NCBI GenBank assembly: GCA_963845565.1
Contig: CAWJSJ010000002.1
Coordinates: 2,112,001-2,176,000 of the forward strand
Length of the DNA: 64,000 bases
Reading direction: 5' to 3'
From: an uncultured Methylomirabilota bacterium
GTDB taxonomy: Bacteria; Methylomirabilota; Methylomirabilia; Methylomirabilales; 2-02-FULL-66-22
Of this stretch, positions 42,483 to 62,574 are shown one piece after another. The position numbers and the translations under genes are program-made. How positions within the stretch are numbered: position 1 is the first letter of the stretch; every line of letters starts with the position of its first letter. The notes beneath the pieces are model-generated. The model was not told where the DNA came from, ran no database searches, and saw only the letters and a list, made by a program, of their open reading frames with translations.

Positions 42483-42529
42483 GGTCCGCCGTCCTTTGGG
42501 GGACTCGTCGATTAACTAGTTGCCGTCAC

Positions 42530-42558
42530 ATTAGAAGATAGCTACGCCGGACTGTCAA
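42530..42558 (-). promoter_or_regulatory. sigma70-type promoter of the htrA-cutA unit
   Basis: TTGACA-N17-TCTAAT on minus strand. Confidence 0.5.
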
Positions 42559-42675
42559 CAAAGATATCGAGGCGGGGGCGAGGCGCACCACGCAACAGCA
42601 AGACGGGTTGTTGGGATCCGACGCTCCGCGTGCCACCATCACCAACCAGGGACGCCGGACTTTCTTTCGATGATG

Positions 42676-42724
42676 CTTGACAGATATCGGCTCAGGTTTT
42701 ATATTGAAGTCCGTGTGATTCAAG
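42676..42724 (+). promoter_or_regulatory. dnaK promoter overlapped by HAIR-like (HspR) operators
   Basis: TTGACA(42677)-N17-TATATT(42700); CTTGACA-N7-GCTCAGG matches 10/14 of HAIR CTTGAGT-N7-ACTCAAG; second TTGA-N12-TCAAG. Confidence 0.7.
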
Positions 42725-42783
42725 CGCAAGATATTCATGGCTTCAATACCTATGAATTCCGCAACATAAACAGGAGGATAGCC

Positions 42784-44703
42784 GTGGGAAAGGTGATCGG
42801 GATCGACCTCGGAACGACTAACTCGGTGGTGTCCGTCATGGAAGGCGGTGACCCGGTTGTTATCACCAACACAGAAGGCGGTCGCCTGACTCCGTCCGTG
42901 GTCGCCTTCTCCAAGGACGGGGAGCGACTGGCGGGGCAAGTCGCCCGGCGCCAGGCCATCACCAACCCAGAGAACACCATCTTCTCGATCAAACGCTTCA
43001 TGGGCCGGCGGTACGACGAAGTGAGCCACGAGATCAAGCTGGTCCCATACAAGGTGGTACGGTTCGGCAACGGTGACGTCCGCGTGGAGGCCCGCGGGAA
43101 GCAATATTCGCCGCCCGAGATCTCGGCCATGATCCTTCAGAAACTGAAGGAGTCGGCCGAGGCGTACCTCGGCGAGAAGGTGACACAGGCGGTCCTCACC
43201 GTCCCGGCCTATTTCAACGATAGTCAGCGGCAGGCCACCAAGGATGCCGGTAAGATCGCGGGGCTGGAAGTTCTGCGTATCGTCAACGAGCCGACGGCGG
43301 CCTCGCTGGCCTACGGTCTGGACAAGAAGAAGGACGAGAAGATCGCCGTCTTCGATCTGGGCGGCGGCACCTTCGACATCTCCATCCTGGAGTTGGGCGA
43401 GGGAGTCTTTGAGGTCAAGTCCACCAATGGGGACACCCATCTCGGTGGCGACGACTTCGACGAGCGAGTCATGAACTGGCTGGTGGACGAGTTCAAGAAG
43501 GACCAAGGGATCGACCTGAGCAAGGACCGCATGGCCCTGCAGCGACTGAAGGAGGCGGCGGAGAAGGCGAAGTGTGAGCTGAGCACGACGCTCGAGACCG
43601 AGATCAACCTGCCGTTCGTCACGGCGGATGCCTCTGGGCCGAAGCACCTCAACCTCAAGCTGACGCGGGCGAAGCTGGAACAGTTGGTGGACGATCTGAT
43701 CCAGCGGACGATTGGTCCATGCCGCCAGGCGTTGAAGGATGCCGGGCTCAACGCCAGCCAGATCGACGAAGTGGTCCTGGTGGGCGGGCAGACCCGCATG
43801 CCCAAGGTCCAGCAGGCGGTGAAGGAGTTCTTTGGGAAGGAGCCGCACAAGGGGGTGAACCCGGACGAGGTCGTGGCCATCGGCGCTGCCATCCAGGCGG
43901 GCGTCCTGGTGGGGGACGTCAAGGATGTGGTTCTGCTCGACGTGACCCCGCTGAGCCTGGGGATCGAGACGCTGGGCGGTGTGTTGACACGCTTGATCGA
44001 ACGCAACACCACCATCCCGACGCGTAAGAGCGAGATCTTTACGACGGCCGCTGATAGCCAGACGAGCGTCGAGATCCACGTCCTGCAAGGCGAGCGCGAA
44101 ATGGCCCGGGACAACCGGACGCTGGGGAAGTTTCATCTGGTCGGTATCATGCCGGCGCCTCGGGGGATTCCACAGATCGAGGTCACCTTCGACATCGATG
44201 CCAACGGCATCGTGAACGTGTCCGCCAAGGACATGGCCACCGGCAAGGAGCAGGCGATCACCATCACGGCCTCCTCCGGTTTGTCGAAGGACGACATCGA
44301 CAAGATGGTCAAGGACGCGGATCGGCATGCCGACGAAGACAAGAAACGCCGGGCCGATATCGAGGGGCGTAACCAGGCGGACAGCCTGGTGTACAATACG
44401 GAGAAGATGCTGAACGAGAATCGGGAGAAGATTCCGGTCAGCGACATCAAGCCGATCGAGGATGCCCTGGCGGCGGCGAAGGAGGCCCTCAAGAGCGAAG
44501 ACATGGACAAGATCCGTGCGACGATGGAGACGCTCACCAAGGCCTCGCATCGCCTGGCCGAGGTGATGTATCGGCAGGCGAAGGAGAAGCAGCCCGCCGA
44601 CACCCCGACCGAAGGCGGCGAGTCTCAGCACAAACCGGGTCCGGCCGGCGAGGGTGAGGTCGTGGATGCGGAGTTCGAGGATCTCGGCAAGGGGAAGAAG
44701 TAG
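42784..44703 (+). CDS. dnaK: molecular chaperone DnaK
   Basis: [39 protein letters not shown] start after AGGAGG. Confidence 0.99.
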
Positions 44704-44720
44704 CCGCAAGGGGGCGCGCT

Positions 44721-52073: not shown

Positions 52074-53570
52074 TCACACGTTGAGAGGAAAGTGTACCGT
52101 GAAGGTGGTGCCGAGGCCGACCTCGCTCTTGACGTCGATAGTGCCCTTGTGGTCCTCGACGATCCGGTGGGTGATGGCCATGCCCAAGCCCATCCCCTTC
52201 TCCTTGGTGGTGAAAAAGGGGTCGAAGATGCGGGGCAGGCGATCCGCCGGAATGCCCTGGCCGGTGTCCGTAACCATCACGCGAAGCGCTGGTTCCGGCT
52301 GGGGGTGGGGAGGGCCGGAATTGGAAAAGACCATGGCGGGGACCGTGCCCGTCCGGACGGTCAGGTCGCCGCCCGCGGGCATTGCCTGGATGGCATTCGA
52401 CACCAGATTGCTGAAGCACCGATGCAGCCGCTTCCGGTCGGCCATACAGAAGGGCAGTTCGGGATCGTACTCCTGCGCGAGCTTGACCTTCTGAGTGGCC
52501 ATCTGGTTTTCAAACAGCTCCAGAACCTGCGCGAAGACCTCATTGAGATTGACGGGGTCCCGGTGAATCGCGACGGGGCGGGCCAGTTCCATCATGTCCT
52601 CGATGACGGCCTGGACCCGCTCCAGCTCTCGTGGCACCACTCGGTTGAACTTTTCCCGCACGTCGGGGTCGTCGTGATGCAGCGACATGAGCTGCGAAAA
52701 GATCAGGATGGAGGTCAGGGGATTGCGGATGTCGTGAGCGATCCCGGCCGCCATGGTGCCCAGGGCGGCCAGGCGATCGGCGCGCCGCAGACGATCCTCC
52801 AGGTCGCGCACCCGAGAGAGCTGGGCGATCATCTCATTGAACGCCGCCGACAGTTGTCCCAGCTCATCTCGCGAGGTGATCTCGATCCGATGGTCGAACT
52901 CGCCGCGGCCGACGGCGGCCACGCCGCGCATCAGCGCCTGGATCGGCCGGGCCGTACGCCGCGCCAGAAAAATGGAGCCGACGCTTCCGATCAGCAGCCC
53001 GAGAAGCACGAACCCTGCGATCTGCCAGCGCGTCCGAGTGATTTCCTGATGCATGGCCTGGAGGGAGACTCCAAGGCGGATCACCCCCCACGTTTCTTGC
53101 GATCCCTCGATGGTCACGGGAAGTCGCACGTCATATACCGTCTCCCGCTCGGTACCGGGAAGATGGAGCTGGTCCACGGTCGCGTCGCCGGGCTTCACGT
53201 CGTTCCGTCGTTGTAGCAGTTGACCGAGCGGGTAGTCTGGGATGAACTGCGCGGCGACGTTGCCTTCCTTGTCGAGGACCACGGCGTATACGAGATCCGG
53301 TTTCTTCTTGAACTGATCCAGCGTTTGCTCGATGGACACATAGTTGTAAGTCAGAAGATCGCTGGCCACCGAACCCGCCAGCGCTTCGACCATGACGAGC
53401 GCGCGCTTCTCGACTTCCTGGACGATGGCGGTCCGCTGCCGCTGCTCGACCAGAAAAGCCGAACTGCCGATCAGCAACACGATGAGCAGGTTCACCAGCA
53501 GGGCGAGTTTGACCCGGAAGCTCAATCGTTCGGCCCACGCGAGCCAGTGGAACCTCTTGAACGGACTCAT
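52074..53570 (-). CDS. membrane sensor histidine kinase (2 TM, periplasmic sensor, HAMP, HisKA, HATPase)
   Basis: DELGQL..AFN.M (HAMP), AHDIRNPL, NL..NAIQA, DTGQG, FDPFFTTK, GMGLG; ATGA overlap with upstream SBP. Confidence 0.95.
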   Translation of the reverse strand: MSPFKRFHWLAWAERLSFRVKLALLVNLLIVLLIGSSAFLVEQRQRTAIVQEVEKRALVMVEALAGSVASDLLTYNYVSIEQTLDQFKKKPDLVYAVVLDKEGNVAAQFIPDYPLGQLLQRRNDVKPGDATVDQLHLPGTERETVYDVRLPVTIEGSQETWGVIRLGVSLQAMHQEITRTRWQIAGFVLLGLLIGSVGSIFLARRTARPIQALMRGVAAVGRGEFDHRIEITSRDELGQLSAAFNEMIAQLSRVRDLEDRLRRADRLAALGTMAAGIAHDIRNPLTSILIFSQLMSLHHDDPDVREKFNRVVPRELERVQAVIEDMMELARPVAIHRDPVNLNEVFAQVLELFENQMATQKVKLAQEYDPELPFCMADRKRLHRCFSNLVSNAIQAMPAGGDLTVRTGTVPAMVFSNSGPPHPQPEPALRVMVTDTGQGIPADRLPRIFDPFFTTKEKGMGLGMAITHRIVEDHKGTIDVKSEVGLGTTFTVHFPLNV

Positions 53571-55195
53571 TCGCGTCCCGGAGATTTTGCCAGCCAGATC
53601 TTTCGCATGGGGATGTATGGATCGCCCAGGGCGTTCACCTCGATGCTTCGCACATACGGTTGGAAGATCCGCTCGTAACTGTAGTAGTTCAAGGGGATGA
53701 TCGGTGCATCGTCGAGGATCAATCGCTCCGCCTCGCGGTACAAGATCACGCGCTTCGGAAGATTCTGCTGAATGCGGGCTTCGTCGAGTAGTCGGTCCAC
53801 CCGCGGGTTTCGGTAGCGCGTCATGTTGTTCCGACCCTGCGAATGGAAGAGGCGGTAGAGAAAATTCTCCGGCTCAGGGACGTCGCCGACCCAGCCATAT
53901 CGAAAGATGGGCATCTTCCCGTCGTACATGTCGCGGTTGAAGGCCGGAAAATCCGTATTGTAGCGGAATTCGATCTGGACGCCGATTTCGGCCAGTTGCT
54001 GTCGAAGGGTTGCATGTTCCCGTTCGACGATTTCCGAACGCGGGTTGGACCAGACTTGAAAAACGGGCAGGCCTTTCCCGTCCGGGAATCCGGCCTTTAT
54101 TAACAGGGCACGCGCACGCGCGGGATCATAGGCGTACGGTTTGAACTGGGGGTCATGGCCGTATGTTCCTGGTGGAAGGAAGCTGTTACCGGGCTTGTAT
54201 CGTCCCTTGTAAACGTTCTGCACCAAAGCGTCTCGGTCGATCGCGAAATTGAATGCCTGGCGCAATTCCCGGCTGGTAAGCGGCTCCTTGGTGGTGTCGA
54301 AGCCAAAGAACCGGACGCCGAGAATGGGTCGGCTTACGAACTGGTGTTGTTTGCTCTCACGCGCCGTGCCCAATTCGCTTGTTGGAACTGGGGTGTCCTC
54401 GAGGTCTCGTTTGCTGAACCTCGAATACATCTCCTCGATCTTCTGTCCGGGGAAGATACGGTATTGCAGACGATCCAGGAAGGGCCGCCCCGCGAAGTAG
54501 TCAGGGTTTGCCTCCAGCTGGATCATGTCGTCTTTTTTCCATCCGGCGAACTTGAACGGGCCCGTTCCTACGGGACGATTCCCGAACTCGACGCCACTGG
54601 CTTGCACCGCTTCCCGCGGTACCACCTTCGCGTACCCGATGGCCAGGCTGGAGACAAACGGGGCGGAGGCTTCGGCGAGAGAGATCTCGATCGTGTGCGC
54701 GTCCAAGACCCGGAAACCGGAGACGCTCCGGGTTCGGCCCTCGATAAAATCCCGTGCGCCCCGTACCTTCGCAAACACTTCGATGCCGCTGGAACGTACC
54801 TTGGGGTCAAGGATGCGGAGGAACGAGAACACGACGTCATCGGCAACCAATTCCCGGCCGTTATGGAACTTGACCCCCTTCCGCAAGAAAAACGTCCAAA
54901 CCAGATTATCTCGCGAACTCTTCCAGGTTTCGGCCAAAGCCGGCGCGATGGAGAGGGTGTTGTCGTACTGCACCAAGCCGTCGAAGATCTGCTGGACCAC
55001 CGTGACGGCATTCGTATCCGTGACCCCTGCAGGGTCGAGCGTGGAGGGATTGTTGCTCAATGGACGACGATATGTCCCGCCATACTGAGGCGTCGGGCCC
55101 TTACCCTTGGTTTGCGCTAAGACATCAGGGGCGCCGAGCATTCCGGGGGCGAGGGACAGGAAACACAGAACGCAGAGAACGCGATGCAGCAGCAC
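53567..55195 (-). CDS. family 5 (Opp/Dpp-like) peptide-binding solute-binding protein, without adjacent permease or ATPase
   Basis: TLDPA, FDGLV, PALAE.W, LRKGVKFHNG, PVGTGPFKF, RQAFNFAIDR. Confidence 0.93.
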   Translation of the reverse strand: MLLHRVLCVLCFLSLAPGMLGAPDVLAQTKGKGPTPQYGGTYRRPLSNNPSTLDPAGVTDTNAVTVVQQIFDGLVQYDNTLSIAPALAETWKSSRDNLVWTFFLRKGVKFHNGRELVADDVVFSFLRILDPKVRSSGIEVFAKVRGARDFIEGRTRSVSGFRVLDAHTIEISLAEASAPFVSSLAIGYAKVVPREAVQASGVEFGNRPVGTGPFKFAGWKKDDMIQLEANPDYFAGRPFLDRLQYRIFPGQKIEEMYSRFSKRDLEDTPVPTSELGTARESKQHQFVSRPILGVRFFGFDTTKEPLTSRELRQAFNFAIDRDALVQNVYKGRYKPGNSFLPPGTYGHDPQFKPYAYDPARARALLIKAGFPDGKGLPVFQVWSNPRSEIVEREHATLRQQLAEIGVQIEFRYNTDFPAFNRDMYDGKMPIFRYGWVGDVPEPENFLYRLFHSQGRNNMTRYRNPRVDRLLDEARIQQNLPKRVILYREAERLILDDAPIIPLNYYSYERIFQPYVRSIEVNALGDPYIPMRKIWLAKSPGRE

Positions 55196-55263
55196 GTTGG
55201 TGCTCCAGTTGGCGCGACCTTTGTTGTGCGAGGGCGCGTTAGGCGCTTGAGTGTGTACCGTGG

Positions 55264-55292
55264 AGGCTAGCGCTCGCGCTGCCCGAAGTCAA
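55264..55292 (-). promoter_or_regulatory. sigma70-type promoter candidate for SBP-kinase unit
   Basis: TTGACT-N17-TAGCCT on minus strand, just downstream of the terminator. Confidence 0.55.
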
Positions 55293-55320
55293 GGTGCGTG
55301 TGCGGAAAGGGCGGCGGGAC

Positions 55321-55355
55321 AAACAAAAGAGCGCGACCCTGAGGATCGCGCTCTT
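55321..55355 (-). terminator. intrinsic terminator after the peptide genes
   Basis: AAGAGCGCGA-N9-TCGCGCTCTT stem running into TTTTGTTT on minus strand. Confidence 0.8.
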
Positions 55356-55389
55356 ACTCGGTAGTCTTAATGAGTGCTGTCTTTATTCC

Positions 55390-55524
55390 CTACTCGCCGC
55401 CGCCCCCGTCACCCTCGGCCATGCCAACGCGGCTGAACACCTGGGTCGAAGACTGGAGCTCCATCGCCGGAACGATCGCCAGAAGACCGAGCACCACCAG
55501 GGCGAGCACGATGAGCTTCTTCAT
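55390..55524 (-). CDS. 44-aa secreted peptide precursor, third in transcription order
   Basis: GGAGGA RBS, ATG..TAG; MKKLIVLALVVLGLLAIVPAMELQSSTQVFSRVGMAEGDGGGGE. Confidence 0.85.
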   Translation of the reverse strand: MKKLIVLALVVLGLLAIVPAMELQSSTQVFSRVGMAEGDGGGGE

Positions 55525-55602
55525 GTCAGTTCCTCCGCTTTGGCAGCGTAAGTTATTTTATTGAATGATAACGGCTTCGTTTCCACTCGGACGAATGATT
55601 GC

Positions 55603-55737
55603 CTACTCGCCGCCGCCCCCGTCACCCTCGGCCATGCCAACGCGGCTGAACACCTGGGTCGAAGACTGGAGCTCCATCGCCGGAACGATCGCCAGAAGAC
55701 CGAGCACCACCAGGGCGAGCACGATGAGCTTCTTCAT
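55603..55737 (-). CDS. 44-aa secreted peptide precursor, second in transcription order
   Basis: identical to the other copies. Confidence 0.85.
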   Translation of the reverse strand: MKKLIVLALVVLGLLAIVPAMELQSSTQVFSRVGMAEGDGGGGE

Positions 55738-55815
55738 GTCAGTTCCTCCGCTTTGGCAGCGTAAGTTATTTTATTGAATGATAACGGCTTCGTTTCCACT
55801 CGGACGAATGATTGC

Positions 55816-55950
55816 CTACTCGCCGCCGCCCCCGTCACCCTCGGCCATGCCAACGCGGCTGAACACCTGGGTCGAAGACTGGAGCTCCATCGCCGGAACG
55901 ATCGCCAGAAGACCGAGCACCACCAGGGCGAGCACGATGAGCTTCTTCAT
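55816..55950 (-). CDS. 44-aa secreted peptide precursor, first in transcription order
   Basis: identical to the other copies; first gene after the sigma54 promoter. Confidence 0.85.
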   Translation of the reverse strand: MKKLIVLALVVLGLLAIVPAMELQSSTQVFSRVGMAEGDGGGGE

Positions 55951-56070
55951 GTCAGTTCCTCCGGTTGGTTGAGAATCGTTTTTGAGTCTTCGACGAATCT
56001 ACACGCGTGATTCGTTGTTGGTCGCTGGTGTGTTTTCGCTGTGTTTCTCGTCGTACGGTGTCTACAGGAA

Positions 56071-56086
56071 AGCAGGCTTCGTGCCA
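56071..56086 (-). promoter_or_regulatory. sigma54 (-24/-12) promoter of the peptide genes
   Basis: TGGCACGAAGCCTGCT on minus strand (GG-N10-GC). Confidence 0.75.
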
Positions 56087-56264
56087 GGTGTCGGGATTGC
56101 GCGATGTGGGCCGGGAAATGGCCGTGCATGGCGGCGATCTGTGGGTGAAGGTCGCCCCCCAAGAATCCCCGATGCCCAATTCTCTGGGCGAACGACGCAT
56201 CGAAATCGGAGATTATCGCCGCGGAAGGAAGGGAACTGCTTGAATCGGAAGGGGTTTATGTCGA

Positions 56265-56303
56265 TGTCAGATTTTTTGTGCAAGCTGCTACAAAAATCGT
56301 GCA
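56265..56303. promoter_or_regulatory. candidate tandem enhancer (UAS) sites for the sigma54 activator
   Basis: two 18-bp sites TGTCAGATTTTTTGTGCA and TGCTACAAAAATCGTGCA, 21 bp apart. Confidence 0.55.
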
Positions 56304-56325
56304 AGCCAGCATACACGAAGAGTGG

Positions 56326-57735
56326 CTAACTATTCGGAAATAGCTGGGGGCGAGAGTCAATCCGCAAGCGCTGCAGCTTCCACGCGAGCGTATTGCGATG
56401 CAAGCCGAGTACCCGAGCAGCTTCTGTCTGGTTCCACTGCACTTTTTCCAGGATGTTCAGGATATATTGGCGCTCGAAATGGCCCCGTGCCTCCCGCAAA
56501 GACAGTCCTGCCTTCTGGATGTCCTCGATGACATCCCCGCCAAGAATAGAGATTTCCAGGGGCAGCTCCCGCAGTGAGATCGTCTCGCTCTGGGCGAGGG
56601 CCACGGCCCGCTCGATCACGTTTTCCAGTTCGCGCACGTTGCCCGGCCAGTCGTAATGATAGAGAGCGGCCGTCGCCCCGGCGGAGAAACCCTTCACCTT
56701 CCGGACGAACTCCCGATTGTACTTGCCGATGAAGTGCTCCACCAGCAGCGGAATGTCCTCGCGCCGCTGACGCAGCGGCGGGAGAACGATCGGGACCACG
56801 TTCAGCCGGTAATACAGGTCCCCTCGGAACGTACCATCCTCGATCGCCTTCTTCAGGTCCCGGTTGGTCGCGGCGATGACCCGGACATCGATCTTGATGG
56901 TCCGGGTGCCGCCGACCCGCTCCACCTCGCGCTCCTGGAGGGCTCGGAGGATCTTCGCCTGAAGGTCCAGGCGCATGTGGCCGATCTCGTCCAGGAAAAG
57001 ACTCCCCCCGGTCGCGAGCTCGAACTTTCCCACCTTGGTGGCGATGGCCCCGGTGAATGCCCCCTTCTCGTGACCGAAGAGCTCCGACTCCAGGAGTTCC
57101 GCCGGGATGGCGGCGCAGTTGACGGCGACGAAGGGGCGCTGGTTCCGGTTGCTCTGCTGGTGGATGGCGCGGGCCAGCACCTCTTTCCCGGTTCCGCTCT
57201 CGCCGCTCAGCAGCACCGTCGCATTGTTATCGGCGATCCGGGCGACCAGGGTGTAGATCTCTTGCATCCGTTGGTTGCGCCCCACGAGATTCTCGAAGCG
57301 GTGGTCGCGCGCGATCTCGGAGCGCAGGTAGAGGACCTCCTTGACGAGTTCCTGCTTCTCGACCACGCGCTTGATCAGCGAGAGGATGTCGTGGGTGTCG
57401 AAGGGCTTGGTGATGTAGTCGGATGCGCCGAGCTTGATGGCCTCGATGGCGGTCTTCAGGGATTTGACTGCGGTGACGATCACCACCTCGGTCTGTTCGT
57501 TCAGGTCTTTGATCCGGCGCAGGACCTCGATTCCGTCCATGCCCGGCATCCGAATGTCGAGCAGCACGAGATTGACGTCGCGGGTGCTCAGGATGCGGAG
57601 CGCCTCGGGGCCCTGGGCGGCGAAGAGCAGGTCGTAATCCTTGGCGAGGACCGCCTCGAAGGATTCGCGGATGGCGGCGTCATCGTCCACCACCAGGATG
57701 CAGGCCCGGATCGGATGCCCGTCGTGATTCGTCAT
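56326..57735 (-). CDS. sigma54-dependent response regulator (NtrC/AtoC family: REC-AAA+-Fis HTH)
   Basis: VVDDD, LLDIRMP, GESGTGKE, ESELFGHEKGAFTGA, LFLDEIG, WPGNVREL, NQTEAARVLGLHRNTL. Confidence 0.97.
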   Translation of the reverse strand: MTNHDGHPIRACILVVDDDAAIRESFEAVLAKDYDLLFAAQGPEALRILSTRDVNLVLLDIRMPGMDGIEVLRRIKDLNEQTEVVIVTAVKSLKTAIEAIKLGASDYITKPFDTHDILSLIKRVVEKQELVKEVLYLRSEIARDHRFENLVGRNQRMQEIYTLVARIADNNATVLLSGESGTGKEVLARAIHQQSNRNQRPFVAVNCAAIPAELLESELFGHEKGAFTGAIATKVGKFELATGGSLFLDEIGHMRLDLQAKILRALQEREVERVGGTRTIKIDVRVIAATNRDLKKAIEDGTFRGDLYYRLNVVPIVLPPLRQRREDIPLLVEHFIGKYNREFVRKVKGFSAGATAALYHYDWPGNVRELENVIERAVALAQSETISLRELPLEISILGGDVIEDIQKAGLSLREARGHFERQYILNILEKVQWNQTEAARVLGLHRNTLAWKLQRLRIDSRPQLFPNS

Positions 57736-57916
57736 GCCGTATCCCACCCCCGCGAGGTTCCCTTGGCACACATGCGACCCGGCCCGGCGGCCCGAAAGAC
57801 TGTTCGGGCTAGTAGCCCAAACGACGCAAGAAGTCAAGTCCAAAGGCCCGCCACGCCTTGACAGGGCCGGACAACTGTGCGACCGTTCGGTCCCTCATTA
57901 CGGGAGTCGGAATCAG

Positions 57917-59750: not shown

Positions 59751-59849
59751 GCCGTTGTCAAAGAATAAGTTGAGCGGAGACATTCCGAAACGGCATAAGG
59801 AGCCGTAACGAAATAGAAAGAGATGTATAGGTTATTTCGTAACGGCTCC
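59751..59849 (-). mobile_element. MITE-like repeat family A, copy 4 (inverted; TAA on plus strand on both sides)
   Basis: reverse complement of the family A sequence; TAA at 59748-50 and 59850-52. Confidence 0.85.
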
Positions 59850-62251
59850 TAAGCGATGGTCGCCGCCCTGACCTGCTGGAGGGTGGTGCGACCCTGCAGA
59901 ACCTTGATCGCCCCGTCCTGCAGGAGGGTGGTCATTCCCTCGTCCACGGCCACCTTCCGAAGCTGCTCGGCGGTGGCGCGTTTCAGGATCGCGCGCTTGA
60001 TCCGGTCGGTCCCGAGCAGGAGCTCGTGCAGGCCGAGCCGGCCGTGGAGCCCGCTGCCCCGGCAGAGGTCGCAGCCCGTGCCGCGATACAGGACGAGGCC
60101 GTCCGTATAGGTGTACCCGAGCGTCTCCAAGACCGCCAAGCCGCACACCCGGGCCAGCTCGTCGAACTCCTCTTTGGGCGGATGGTACGCCTCGCGGCAT
60201 TTCGCGCAGACCGCCCGGCACAGCCGCTGGGCCAGCACCCCCACCAGGGCGTCGGCGACGCCGAAGCAGTCCAATCCCAGGTCCAGCAGGCGTGAGACGG
60301 TCTCCACGGCGCCGCCCGCGCGCAGGGTGCCGAGGACCAGATGGCCTGCCAGCGCTGCCTCGAGGAGCGCATCCCAGGTGTCCTGGGTCCGCACGGCATC
60401 CACCGCGATCACGTCCGGGTCGGCGCGGAGCGCCGCGCGGACGGCCGCGGCGACGGTCACGCCGCGTGCGGGTTGGACCTGGACTCGGCGCAGACCGGTG
60501 TGGGCCGTCTCGATCGGGTCTTGGATACTCCAGACCTTGCGCTCGACCGCATCGACGGCACCGAGGATGGCGCCGAGCGCAGCGGTGGCGCCGGCGCCCG
60601 GCGGGCTCCCGCAGAGGAACAAGCCAGCGGGTCTGGACGCGATCGCGTGAAGGGTGTGGAGGTTTCGCTCGGCGAGACCGAGTTGGTCCAGCGACAGGGG
60701 CACGCTCGCCGGCAGGAGGTGCATCACCAGGTCCTCGTTCGACCCGGCCGTCGGGAGCGTGGCGACGCGCAGGGCGACCTCTCGGTTGTCGACGACATAC
60801 GTTCCCCGACCCTCCTGGGGCGCGCGCCGCTCGGCGGGATCGAGTCCGGCCACGGCCTTGCAGTGAGCCACCAGGGCCAGCCCCTCTGCCGCCGGCAGCG
60901 TGGTATGCTCGACACACAGACCGTCCACCCGGAAACGAATGACGCACGCCCGCTGGCCGCCCTGCGGCTCGAGGTGCACGTGCGACGCCCCGACCCGGCA
61001 GGCGTCACGCATGATCTGATCGGCGACTCGGGTGCCGGCCGCCTCGCTCGCCTCCCCAGGCTTACTTCCCTGGTCCTCTCCGGTCTGCCCCATGGGCATT
61101 TCCGGCTCCCGCTGGTGGGCCACCTCGTCCGCCGTGTCTTCCGCGGCCGCTTCGCAGACCAGCGGCGCGGTTGCGACGGAGACCGGTGCCTCTGCATCGA
61201 CGGACCGGCTCGGCGTGTCCGCAACGGACGCATCGTCAGGCGTGCGACCGGCAGGGCCGGTCACCGCGTCGAGGAATCGCAGGATATCCGCGCGCAGACC
61301 GACGGCGAACCGGATGGGCCGGCCAGGGAAGGTCCGCTTGATATCCTGGATACGGTTCAGGTGATTTGGGTCGTCGCTCAGGATATGGACGCCGTCCTTG
61401 TCGTGCTTCAGGGGAATCCAGCCGTTGTTCCGCAGGGTTTCGGGATTCACGCTGTCGAGCAGAGTCGGATCGAGGCTCGTCGCGCCGTCGTATTCGATGA
61501 AGGGGCACCGGTAGAACTGGCTGAGGGACTTCCCGATGTCCGCCCTGGGGACCTGGTACTGCTCCAGCAGGACCGTTTCGACGTCAACCTGACCCTGCTG
61601 CGCCTCCCGGATCGCCTGCTCCAAATCGGCTTGGGTGATCCGGTTGTGGGCTACCAGATAGTCGAACTTGGTGGGGATCCGCCGGGAGACCTTGAGTCGG
61701 TTGAAAAACGCGATCCCCAATGTCTGGGCGAGTTCGGAGACCGCGTCCTCGTCCTTCTGGGTGAATCGTCCGCCACTCTTCTTGTTCACGAGCTGTATCA
61801 CGCCCATCAGATACTTGCCATCGGCCACGATCGGGTAGGTCAGGATCTGCTTGGTGCGGAATCCGCTCTTCCGGTCCCAGGAGCTGTCGAACGTGAGCGC
61901 CGGGCTGACGGCGCGAAGCTCGGCGCGGCTGTACGCGTCCGCGATGTTCACGGGGCGGCGGAACTTGGCAGCGAAGCCGGCGATGCTCTGCTCGCTGATG
62001 GGGACGCGGATCTCGCGGATCTTGTTGATATCGAGAAACTTGGAGTAGATCTCGCGCCGTTCGGCGTCCACGACGTACAGGGTCAGCAGCTCCGCGTCGA
62101 GCACCTGGAGGATCTCATCCTTGAGGTCCACCACGATGTGGTCCAAATCCTTGGCAGAATGGATCCGATTGATGATCTCTTTGACGTGTTCCGCGCGGGC
62201 GACTTTCTGCTCGAGTTCTTCCACCCTACTGGAACGGCCTTCGGTCTCCAT
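59849..62251 (-). CDS. GAF domain + GspE/PilB-family ATPase-like protein with degenerate catalytic motifs
   Basis: GAF (SIAGF, FD.SWD.KSGFRTKQIL, QLVNKK...FT..DE); ERRAPQEGR, QDPIE, LRADPDVI, AQRLCR.VC..C, GCDLC. Confidence 0.88.
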   Translation of the reverse strand: METEGRSSRVEELEQKVARAEHVKEIINRIHSAKDLDHIVVDLKDEILQVLDAELLTLYVVDAERREIYSKFLDINKIREIRVPISEQSIAGFAAKFRRPVNIADAYSRAELRAVSPALTFDSSWDRKSGFRTKQILTYPIVADGKYLMGVIQLVNKKSGGRFTQKDEDAVSELAQTLGIAFFNRLKVSRRIPTKFDYLVAHNRITQADLEQAIREAQQGQVDVETVLLEQYQVPRADIGKSLSQFYRCPFIEYDGATSLDPTLLDSVNPETLRNNGWIPLKHDKDGVHILSDDPNHLNRIQDIKRTFPGRPIRFAVGLRADILRFLDAVTGPAGRTPDDASVADTPSRSVDAEAPVSVATAPLVCEAAAEDTADEVAHQREPEMPMGQTGEDQGSKPGEASEAAGTRVADQIMRDACRVGASHVHLEPQGGQRACVIRFRVDGLCVEHTTLPAAEGLALVAHCKAVAGLDPAERRAPQEGRGTYVVDNREVALRVATLPTAGSNEDLVMHLLPASVPLSLDQLGLAERNLHTLHAIASRPAGLFLCGSPPGAGATAALGAILGAVDAVERKVWSIQDPIETAHTGLRRVQVQPARGVTVAAAVRAALRADPDVIAVDAVRTQDTWDALLEAALAGHLVLGTLRAGGAVETVSRLLDLGLDCFGVADALVGVLAQRLCRAVCAKCREAYHPPKEEFDELARVCGLAVLETLGYTYTDGLVLYRGTGCDLCRGSGLHGRLGLHELLLGTDRIKRAILKRATAEQLRKVAVDEGMTTLLQDGAIKVLQGRTTLQQVRAATIA

Positions 62252-62574
62252 GTGTCTCACTCCCCCTGCCTTCCGGCGCAGGTCCATCCGCGTCGCGTGC
62301 CCCTGGTGCCTTTGGGGTGACCCGAGGACGGTGCGCGGTGAGCCGCCGCCCTTCCCGGGTCTGGGACGAGTTGCCGGCAGAAGACTAGCGATCGTTTTTG
62401 GCGAAGGCAAGTTGAAAGATGACCTGCGACATTCGCTTGCCCAGCGGGTCGCCTGGCAGTATGCTCTCGCGCGATCACATGCGAGGGTGCGACCCAGGGG
62501 CACCCCCGCCGGGCACGACCATTATTGCCCCGGCTCCTCCACCTGGGGGAGGTGCCCCCGTTCAGGAGGCCCCC

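Follow-up and report, generated by a model that had tools for sequence, protein, structure and literature searches.

The window analysed here, a stretch of 64,000 nucleotides (nt) from an uncultured Methylomirabilota bacterium (assembly GCA_963845565.1, contig CAWJSJ010000002.1, positions 2,112,001 to 2,176,000), carries on its minus strand a tandem array of three identical genes for a 44-residue peptide, flanked by a gene for an NtrC-type sigma-54 activator on one side and by genes for a periplasmic solute-binding protein (SBP) and a histidine kinase on the other. This four-gene module recurs across the class within Methylomirabilota. Judged by its sequence, the peptide, the SBP and the membrane-and-periplasm half of the kinase are one exchangeable unit, with a history unlike that of the cytoplasmic backbone. 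We read the module as a direct peptide-sensor feedback, in which the exported peptide would be the cognate ligand of the SBP-kinase sensor, and give this reading a probability of roughly 55%.

According to the feedback reading, the SBP and the Cache/HAMP histidine kinase would together form the sensor, and the kinase would phosphorylate the activator, which would bind two upstream palindromes and fire a single sigma-54 promoter. The sole product of this promoter would be a pre-peptide of 40-48 residues, here encoded by three identical cistrons. The pre-peptide would be exported through Sec and then either be processed to some 19-24 residues that contain the conserved core STQ-x-F...G-x-A-[DE]-Gly(n)-x, or stay anchored with that part in the periplasm. 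The peptide would bind back to the SBP and the kinase sensor domain, so that the system would measure its own product in a feedback or autoinduction loop, acting between cells or only in the periplasm of the producer. Two peptide types, A and B, would be swapped between lineages as a cassette of peptide, SBP and kinase sensor half, in which the three partners must match, and the tandem copies would raise the peptide output per transcript. We infer export, the cleavage site, activator binding, peptide-sensor binding and the sign of the feedback.

The evidence that carries this reading is the mosaic inheritance of the module within the genus. Type A peptides, to which the window belongs, have 42-44 residues, a core ending in V-G-M-A-E and a long Gly tail, and type B peptides have 40 residues, the motif x-G-[FL]-A-[ED] and a G-G-x tail. 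The mean identities of the other parts of the module within and between the two types were as follows.

Activator: 85% within A, 83% within B, 85% for A versus B
Kinase cytoplasmic part: 76% within A, 76% within B, 75% for A versus B
Kinase periplasmic domain: 73% within A, 70% within B, 52% for A versus B
SBP: 75% within A, 81% within B, 56% for A versus B

Quick trees were calculated from 19-21 rows with outgroups from distant families, leaving out split open reading frames (ORFs; the SBP of locus L026 and the kinase of L024) and the partial activators of L025, L027, L028 and L032. In the SBP tree types A and B were recovered as clades with long stems and with support values of 100/100 in the Shimodaira-Hasegawa-like approximate likelihood ratio test (SH-aLRT), and a genome of another family was placed beside B. 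The periplasmic domain of the kinase gave the same two clades (SH-aLRT 97/98). In contrast, the activator tree united the window (A), L034 (B) and L024 (A) in one clade with a support of 100, and A and B as clades were rejected by the approximately unbiased (AU) test with p values of 3.6e-5 and 3.3e-4. The types were also mixed in the tree of the kinase core, where the window was paired with L034 and the A and B clades were again rejected (AU p 7.1e-4 and 5.5e-4).

The same boundary was seen at the DNA level. When L024 (A) and L034 (B) were compared in sliding windows, the activator gene had an identity of 85-94%, the intergenic region one of 57-75% and the peptide gene one of about 66-71%. 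Identity was about 41-72% across the SBP gene and the initial 750 nt of the kinase gene, and it rose to 92-98% from approximately kinase residue 250, just after HAMP. The window and L034 exhibited the same identity step at approximately kinase residue 250. Since the trees, the AU tests and the step in DNA identity agree, the peptide, the SBP and the kinase sensor parts appear to be exchanged as a whole, and the peptide type matched the SBP and sensor type in all 12 loci examined.

Several points weigh against the feedback reading. The variable cassette is one contiguous DNA segment, and its co-inheritance could therefore reflect linkage and recombination breakpoints rather than co-adaptation. 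Only two peptide types are found in the genus, and the activator tree needs four label changes compared with a minimum of two (well-supported branches force two per type), so that independent switches of type have been few. The loci of the genus were grouped by the peptide alone (length and tail), at a point when the identity bands of the SBP had already been seen. Within type A the SBP falls to 63% identity while the peptide core is almost unchanged, which argues that divergence of the SBP is not driven by the peptide alone. The core is also unusually conserved for a pheromone, being near-invariant in the genus and recognizable across the class, and the residue at a candidate cleavage position before a conserved x-E is A, T or V. 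No dedicated processing or export enzyme of the AgrB, ComQ or ComAB type is found in the module. The contigs from RNA libraries described below hold no information on the strand, start or level of an RNA, and the proposed binding of the peptide to the sensor is argued from co-inheritance. Finally, signalling between cells is disfavoured by the outer membrane of a phylum that we take to be diderm, since a 2-kDa peptide would not pass general porins.

Peptide quorum sensing or kin recognition can be suggested only tentatively. It would involve an unmodified, Sec-exported signal of about 19 residues, perceived outside the cytoplasm by the SBP as co-receptor for the Cache kinase, amplification by sigma-54, at least two pherotypes swapped as a cassette, and gene copies that tune the output between strains.

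The data on inheritance also have to be weighed against an explanation without any feedback, in which the SBP-kinase pair senses an unrelated external ligand (such as environmental or cell-wall-derived peptides), the peptide is an effector (envelope-acting, protective or antagonistic), and the genes travel together by adjacency. A single contiguous cassette and the strong SBP divergence within type A, with an unchanged peptide core, agree with this explanation, as does a promoter that seems to be the sole target of the activator, as for a dedicated effector. Furthermore, the SBP keeps the generic peptide-anchoring Asp of DppA and OppA and could bind many peptides. However, the right breakpoint of the cassette lies inside the kinase gene, at the boundary between its sensor and catalytic parts and not at a gene border, and the left one lies around the peptide gene, so that both edges match functional limits. 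The tracking of SBP and sensor type by peptide type in 12 of 12 loci speaks against mere adjacency, and no immunity, export or target gene accompanies the peptide gene. On balance we consider an output-only peptide rather unlikely.

The features of the module and its control region are listed in the order of transcription.

56326-57843, minus strand: NtrC-type sigma-54 activator with receiver, AAA+ sigma-54 interaction domain and Fis-type helix-turn-helix (Pfam)
56297-56318, minus strand: terminator-like hairpin after the activator gene, from a consensus scan, with a 7-bp stem and a T run; weak, with a putative function
56272-56293, minus strand: UAS1, putative distal enhancer site, some 200 nt ahead of the sigma-54 box (TTGTGCA-N3-TGCACAA in relatives), a conserved block in a 13-locus alignment in which 12 loci cover the site
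56174-56189, minus strand: UAS2, proximal palindrome (GCCCA-N6-TGGGC), some 100 nt ahead of the box, conserved in the alignment
56071-56086, minus strand: sigma-54 -24/-12 element TGGCAC-N5-CTGCT, from a pattern scan, a position weight matrix (PWM) and conservation
55951-56058, minus strand: presumed 5' untranslated leader, placed by the usual distance from the -12 element to the start
55816-55950, minus strand: peptide gene copy 1 (44 residues), an ORF with GGAGGA-N6-ATG, member of a family of 105 proteins, dN/dS about 0.17
55738-55815, minus strand: spacer 1 (78 nt, with the ribosome-binding site (RBS) in its last 13 nt), identical to spacer 2 and found within RNA-library contigs of three studies
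55603-55737, minus strand: peptide gene copy 2, an ORF with identical product
55525-55602, minus strand: spacer 2 (78 nt), identical to spacer 1
55390-55524, minus strand: peptide gene copy 3, an ORF with identical product
55327-55355, minus strand: predicted intrinsic terminator ending the array transcript, with a 13-bp stem, 8 G-C pairs and a T run (-21.8 kcal/mol)
53567-55195, minus strand: orphan periplasmic SBP of family 5, DppA/OppA-like (PF00496, 1.5e-88)
52821-53570, minus strand: histidine kinase sensor half, residues 1 to about 250, with transmembrane (TM) helix 1, sCache_3_2 (Pfam, 1.2e-07), TM2 and HAMP (1.3e-16)
52074-52820, minus strand: histidine kinase core with HisKA and HATPase_c (Pfam), the conserved backbone

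The unit is bordered by a convergent GHMP kinase gene at its end and a divergent uvrC ahead of it. The SBP was assigned to PF00496 with a score of 297.8 bits (cutoff 32.4), and its closest relatives with solved structures are peptide-binding proteins, first 8upi (8.3e-72) and then DppA, HbpA, MppA and OppA; against the equivalogs of NCBIfam all its scores were far below the cutoff. At the position of DppA Arg355, presumably the anchor for the dipeptide carboxylate, the SBP has Asn. The motif W-V-G-D438 aligns with GWTGD of DppA, where D438 corresponds to Asp408 (a position counted on the alignment), and in 121 relatives this residue is conserved to at least 90%. According to a passage of PMC3295651, Asp408 of DppA is strictly conserved and forms a salt bridge with the charged N-terminus of the ligand. 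In contrast to standard DppA and OppA proteins, no ABC permease or ATPase was found among the 16 neighbouring ORFs scanned, and the kinase gene follows directly, overlapping the SBP stop codon by 4 nt in what looks like translational coupling. An orphan, kinase-coupled SBP of the peptide type is how a peptide co-receptor would be expected to look, although it could equally bind other peptides. The SBP of the window has a long terminal branch (0.53 changes per site) and 63% identity to its nearest type A relative among the genomes, while proteins with 91-93% identity exist in databases, and it may represent a third sub-type.

The activator was matched by Sigma54_activat (3.7e-74), Response_reg (5.1e-30) and HTH_8 (6.6e-12) of Pfam. 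Its longest ORF has a TTG start 36 codons ahead of the alignment of its relatives, which begins at residue 36-37, and the true start is probably Met37 of this ORF, near 57735. ZraS and ZraR were among the better NCBIfam matches for kinase and activator, all of them below the cutoff. The kinases of distant-family loci L185-L194 have 632-924 residues, compared with 498 in the window. The additional residues separate the sensor half from the catalytic core, the query being matched in two separate stretches.

When compared with known systems, the module is most reminiscent of comQXPA of Bacillus, agr of Staphylococcus and comCDE of Streptococcus, with a small peptide gene beside a histidine kinase and a regulator, and with discrete types in which the peptide is inherited together with the sensing part of the kinase while the catalytic part and the regulator are conserved. 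In comP and agrC the polymorphism stops inside the gene. Pherotypes and a striking polymorphism of comQXP are described in a passage of PMC4408185 and likewise in PMC5629823 and PMC7595303. The differences are nevertheless considerable. AgrB, ComQ and ComAB-type maturation or export enzymes are missing here, the precursor is of neither the double-glycine nor the AgrD type and has a Sec-like N-terminus, and a separate family-5 SBP is part of the variable unit. Moreover, the kinase belongs to the Cache/HAMP type and is not polytopic, a sigma-54 activator serves as the regulator, conservation of the peptide core is far stronger, the peptide gene forms a transcription unit by itself, and the host phylum is presumably diderm.

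A periplasmic SBP seated on the periplasmic domain of a kinase, as we propose here, is the arrangement of LuxP-LuxQ and CBP-ChiS. CBP is likewise an SBP of family 5. The ligands in those two cases are a small molecule or a sugar from other pathways, whereas a gene-encoded peptide of the same locus is proposed here, and no sigma-54 output takes part in those systems. CBP also serves a transporter, while the SBP of the window has no transporter nearby. A passage of bioRxiv 10.1101/2020.01.10.902320 describes how CBP docks on ChiS, in parallel to LuxPQ, so that the SBP sets the kinase activity.

Sigma-54 output is known from AioX-AioS-AioR, in which a periplasmic SBP and a histidine kinase are combined with a sigma-54 activator acting on one adjacent sigma-54 promoter; however, its ligand is arsenite, its target is an enzyme operon, its SBP belongs to another family, and it is not known to have a peptide or type cassettes. 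In ZraP-ZraSR and CpxP-CpxAR a small periplasmic product of an adjacent gene is the main target and acts back on the sensor, and ZraSR uses sigma-54. ZraP and CpxP are folded proteins of about 140-170 residues from one family, in systems that are not known to have an SBP, and the peptide described here has no match to the CpxP/Spy/ZraP family.

The sequence-only reading had described the peptide as the precursor of a short signal with a logic like that of Phr or PapR. Its signalling role has gained indirect support from the co-inheritance with the extracytoplasmic parts of the sensor, but the second half of the proposal found no support, as no RNPP/TPR receptor or Opp permease lies nearby. Phr-Rap and PapR-PlcR do share with the module a small Sec-exported precursor and an Opp-family SBP involved in perceiving the peptide. 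RNPP peptides, however, enter the cell through a complete Opp permease and bind to a TPR receptor in the cytoplasm, whereas permease, ATPase and TPR regulator are all missing in the neighbourhood here (no TPR or RNPP match was obtained among the neighbouring genes) and the SBP is coupled to a kinase. With an OppA/DppA-like SBP paired with a histidine kinase, the logic resembles that of agr/com and LuxPQ and not that of Phr/PapR.

The peptide ORFs are real protein-coding genes under purifying selection. Among 38 codons in 13 loci the variable sites at codon positions 1, 2 and 3 numbered 17, 4 and 28, with a mean dN (nonsynonymous changes) of 0.115, a mean dS (synonymous changes) of 0.689 and a dN/dS of about 0.17; it is the excess of variation at third positions and the low dN/dS that identify the ORF as coding. 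The small gene suggested from sequence alone is thus supported as genuine and conserved; its product starts with a segment for export or anchoring and ends in an acidic tail rich in Gly. In a large protein database 105 homologues of 36-76 residues were found, all unnamed or labelled hypothetical protein, and the few records inspected were assigned to 'Candidatus Methylomirabilota' or 'candidate division NC10'. A profile search yielded just 19 matches at E <= 1e-3 among 1.84 billion representatives, which makes this a narrow and specific family. The peptide had no match in Pfam or NCBIfam at E <= 0.01, and a protein atlas returned only unnamed 'hypothetical protein' clusters and no structure.

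Across 56 aligned members M1, K3, G13, P19, E22, S25, R32 and A36 are invariant, and S26-S31, G34, L14, L15 and A16 are at least 90% conserved. The class-wide core consists of P-x-x-E, then S-T-Q-x-F, then G-x-A-[DE], followed by 2-5 Gly and one variable residue. It had been supposed that the C-terminal tail would be the conserved part; instead it is the core that is kept, and the tail varies in length and last residue. The basic n-region and the hydrophobic h-region are clear. By the -3/-1 rule, according to which small residues are favoured by signal peptidase I and T or V are poor, there are two candidate cleavage sites. The first lies after A20, before the conserved x-E, and is poor in those members with T or V there; this is the site after VPA in the original proposal, and it is not conserved, as a distant family has A-P-V at this place. 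The second lies after S25 (L-Q-S|S here, T-S-G|S in the distant family) and gives n = 3, h = 15 and c = 7. A third possibility, cleavage after GMA, found nothing in its favour. It may be speculated that after cleavage at S25 the invariant S-T-Q-x-F would stand free at the N-terminus and could contact the conserved Asp of the SBP.

The poor fit of T or V to signal peptidase I is one of the arguments for an uncleaved peptide, that is, a micro-protein of 44 residues held in the inner membrane by a signal anchor (N-in, C-out), which would modulate the kinase by helix packing and periplasmic contacts in the manner of MgrB-PhoQ. Such a product would be cell-autonomous, the outer membrane would be no obstacle, and the SBP would sense something else or serve as a bridge. 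The hydrophobic segment of 15-23 residues reaches membrane-spanning length in some distant members, it is strongly conserved in the genus (G13, L14, L15 and A16 at 90% or more), and the variable cassette takes in both TM helices of the kinase and HAMP. MgrB, with about 45 residues, one N-terminal hydrophobic segment and a short periplasmic tail, is induced by the system that it regulates; it is, however, unrelated in sequence and needs periplasmic cysteines, of which the peptide has none, and the module also includes an SBP. On the other side, the sequence and the length of the hydrophobic segment are free to change in distant members and the periplasmic core stays fixed, which is the behaviour expected of a signal peptide, and the canonical site after S25 offers cleavage five residues further on. 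We consider an uncleaved micro-protein improbable.

Other ideas for the peptide were a ribosomally synthesized and post-translationally modified peptide (RiPP), a microcin, PEP-CTERM or GlyGly-CTERM sorting, and a Pup-like tail. They were dropped, as no modifying, export or sortase genes lie nearby and the hydrophobic segment is N-terminal.

The array appears from its sequence to be one transcription unit, with two conserved palindromes, a sigma-54 box, three cistrons and a strong terminator. The box TGGCAC-N5-CTGCT is the only match in the window, where 0.10 would be expected by chance. The strict pattern was found in 14 of 15 peptide-bearing 3-kb loci, and of the 15 loci parsed from distant families 14 had a relaxed form (TGG-N9-TTGC) at a distance of 80-96 nt before the ATG. 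Over the 13 aligned loci the box is invariant and accompanied by the two conserved palindromes. PWMs were then derived from relatives alone, with the window and the closely similar G009 excluded, and scored on the source genome (5.36 Mb). Both sites of the window ranked first genome-wide, the box with 26.3 bits compared with 20.3 for the next site and UAS1 with 24.8 compared with 15.8. The genome has 38 strict sigma-54-like boxes, of which only that of the array is preceded by a UAS2-type palindrome within 300 nt. The promoter of the array looks like the activator's only target in the genome; the adjacent activator would control the peptide gene, presumably through binding to UAS1 and UAS2.

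Downstream of the peptide gene an equivalent hairpin with a T run was present in 10 of 12 related loci. Contigs from RNA libraries of three metatranscriptome studies contain the repeat unit (gene, spacer and next gene), while 55964-56330 is absent from these contigs and covered by the DNA run X1, which is a weak hint of expression only and is not taken to mark a transcript boundary. Between the array terminator and the SBP start, at about 55245-55290 on the minus strand, the sequence TTGACT-N17-TAGCCT was found by eye (it is not listed by the consensus scan) and may be a weak sigma-70-type promoter of the SBP-kinase operon.

Tandem copies under sigma-54 and an NtrC-type activator are also a trait of Qrr small RNAs (sRNAs), and the array could in principle act as RNA, either as tandem sigma-54-dependent sRNAs or as a translated leader controlling read-through into the SBP-kinase operon directly downstream. 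A further feature that would suit such a function is a stretch of 17 nt (ACC CAG GTG TTC AGC CG, at 55844-55860, at the equivalent positions of copies 2 and 3, and in loci L023-L034), which is almost invariant over 13 loci, synonymous sites included, while neighbouring codons are free at third positions; it could be explained by codon preference or by additional constraint on the RNA. The substitutions are nonetheless protein-like (17/4/28, dN/dS 0.17), frame, strong RBS and length of the gene are kept across the class while the DNA diverges, and a strong terminator stands between array and SBP gene in 10 of 12 loci. Rfam gave nothing credible over 55000-56500, the lone match (E=0.1) being to a vertebrate long non-coding RNA model with 13 bits compared with a gathering score of 80. 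We regard an RNA function as very improbable.

The array itself was seen by Tandem Repeats Finder as one repeat at 55385-55963 with a period of 213, 2.7 copies and 99% matches, in agreement with the three minus-strand ORFs and with the initial description of three identical 44-residue genes in a 213-bp array. The first 126 nt of each gene copy are without differences. The two spacers are identical to each other, and only their final 13 nt, which hold the RBS, resemble the 5' leader. As had been noted from the letters alone, GGAGGA precedes every ATG of the array by 6 nt, and the plus-strand ORFs over the array are shadow frames. The identity extends 13 nt ahead of the first ATG and about 4 nt beyond the last stop codon, so that the repeated unit is indeed the gene. 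No further copy of the peptide gene was found in the source genome (6 contigs, 66% G+C).

The reality of the array was examined over 55690-56330 with one DNA run (X1) and three RNA runs from different studies (X15, X16 and X18). Contigs of X15 and X18 had a length of exactly 243 nt and the order gene, spacer and next gene start, and one contig of X16 contained a joint that 'goes back 213'. A length of 243 nt equals 213 + 30, which would be the cycle expected of a tandem repeat in a k=31 assembly graph. From these contigs and the joint in X16 it follows that the same spacer stands in tandem in three independent studies. In X1, on the other hand, a 611-nt contig joins the 5' flank, one gene and the sequence after copy 3 of the window, with a depth of 6.55 compared with 6.57 for a contig of the flank alone, and the shared words (0.84) correspond to everything except the spacers. 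X1 differs from the window by single-nucleotide polymorphisms (SNPs) and therefore represents another, near-identical strain; with its single copy it shows that the copy number is polymorphic between near-identical strains and is no artefact. The single copy that had been named as a possible refutation does exist, but in another strain, and the tandem joints of the three RNA studies stand. At position 55814, one base inside the spacer that follows the stop codon region, all four runs have C where the window has G, a fixed difference between the genome and the sampled strains. The stretch was present in 20 runs from 15 studies, mostly of freshwater, wetland and sediment samples.

Amplification of the peptide gene is not confined to the window. 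Genome G009 has three copies with spacers that are homologous to those of the window and slightly diverged, G012 has two copies with a spacer that is a copy of its own 5' leader, and metagenome locus L090 has two copies and a third, unrelated type of spacer. As the spacers are unrelated across the three lineages, amplification has arisen independently at least three times. The recent expansion deduced from perfect identity fits a near-identical strain with one copy, and the idea that copy number raises dosage fits the range of 1-3 copies and the repeated amplifications. That the array is a product of mis-assembly from one true copy is hardly credible, for although X1 provides a near-identical strain with a single copy, that strain is distinct by its SNPs, the 213 + 30 nt cycles with the same spacer come from three independent RNA studies, G009 has its own three copies with slightly diverged spacers, and a spacer sequence can exist only where there are at least two tandem copies.

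The locus of G009 (L023, G009:C28:6000-22000) appears to contain many frameshifts; for two of the three peptide copies the frame continues past the Gly-run tail to 60-61 residues, and its SBP and activator are split. Long-tailed variants like those of G009 also occur among the database proteins (P0006, P0008, P0044, P0103 and P0105). They are probably sequencing errors in G runs, with real frameshift variants as the alternative.

The distribution of the module was followed in genomes and metagenomes. The peptide was found in 12 of 20 other genomes of the same genus, and by profile search in 83 of 251 Methylomirabilota genomes, a tally that includes the unpublished G075 and G217. By family the matches were 12/20 for f1, 64/159 for f9, 2/21 for f10, 0/20 for f7 and 0/15 for f4. 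The order activator, peptide, SBP and kinase is kept in the loci of the same genus. Among 16 loci of 3 kb from the f9 group (one of them from G075) the SBP adjoins a small ORF in all 16, and the activator is also present in 15. In larger loci from distant families activator, peptide and SBP occurred together in 12 of 12 cases and the kinase in nine, the contigs of the other three ending before it.

Among the eight genomes of the genus that lack a peptide match no clean case was found either for or against a sensor module without peptide. Four of them have the orthologous kinase, and three of the four contigs are cut off within the gene of the kinase or of the SBP. As these breaks fall together with the identical repeats and the hypervariable cassette, peptide genes seem to be easily lost from metagenome-assembled genomes. 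The fourth is G004, where the contig of locus L203 begins (bases 1-420) with a fragment like the C-terminus of a transposase, 490 nt upstream of the SBP, at the place where the peptide gene and activator would be expected. The peptide gene may have been lost through an insertion, or the contig may have broken at a repeat.

A pattern scan of metagenome contigs gave at least 117 stretches, and of 119 loci screened (with L038 and L039) five encode the peptide, namely L038, L090, L139, L141 and L148, a number too small for a broad analysis of covariation. When genome contigs were scanned with a profile of the peptide alignment, two were confirmed among at least 600 stretches listed (with a low-complexity MKK pattern), a contig of G013 and L039. 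The latter, from Lysobacteraceae, was rejected as a homologue, as its similarity covers 18 residues inside a longer frame without a signal peptide and is put down to chance.

Gene-encoded peptide signalling with specificity types is, to our knowledge, a textbook trait of Firmicutes and presumably rare, if present at all, in bacteria with two membranes. Methylomirabilota are prominent in soils, sediments and groundwater, include nitrite-dependent methane oxidizers and are largely uncultivated. Literature searches on quorum sensing in Methylomirabilota gave, among the papers listed, no relevant report by title or abstract, and those on combinations of SBP, histidine kinase, sigma-54 and signalling peptide gave no description of such a module. 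Peptide-sensor feedback with specificity cassettes is thus a known logic, while the combination of parts and the phylum are new as far as the literature searches, family libraries and atlas go. The module is a compact candidate with four genes, one promoter, an unmodified peptide that can be synthesized, and two natural types. If the peptide is the ligand, a peptide-binding protein of the transporter type would have been recruited as a pheromone co-receptor, sigma-54 could run an autoinduction loop, and cassette exchange in the style of pherotypes would evolve also outside Gram-positives. If the feedback is only cell-autonomous, the peptides would still be a new class of small-protein regulators of sensor kinases.

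Elsewhere in the window an NAD-specific glutamate dehydrogenase (42526-44709; PF10712, 1.7e-182) and a secretion-type ATPase with GAF, MshEN and T2SSE domains (59849-62503) are encoded, which look ordinary and unrelated to the module.

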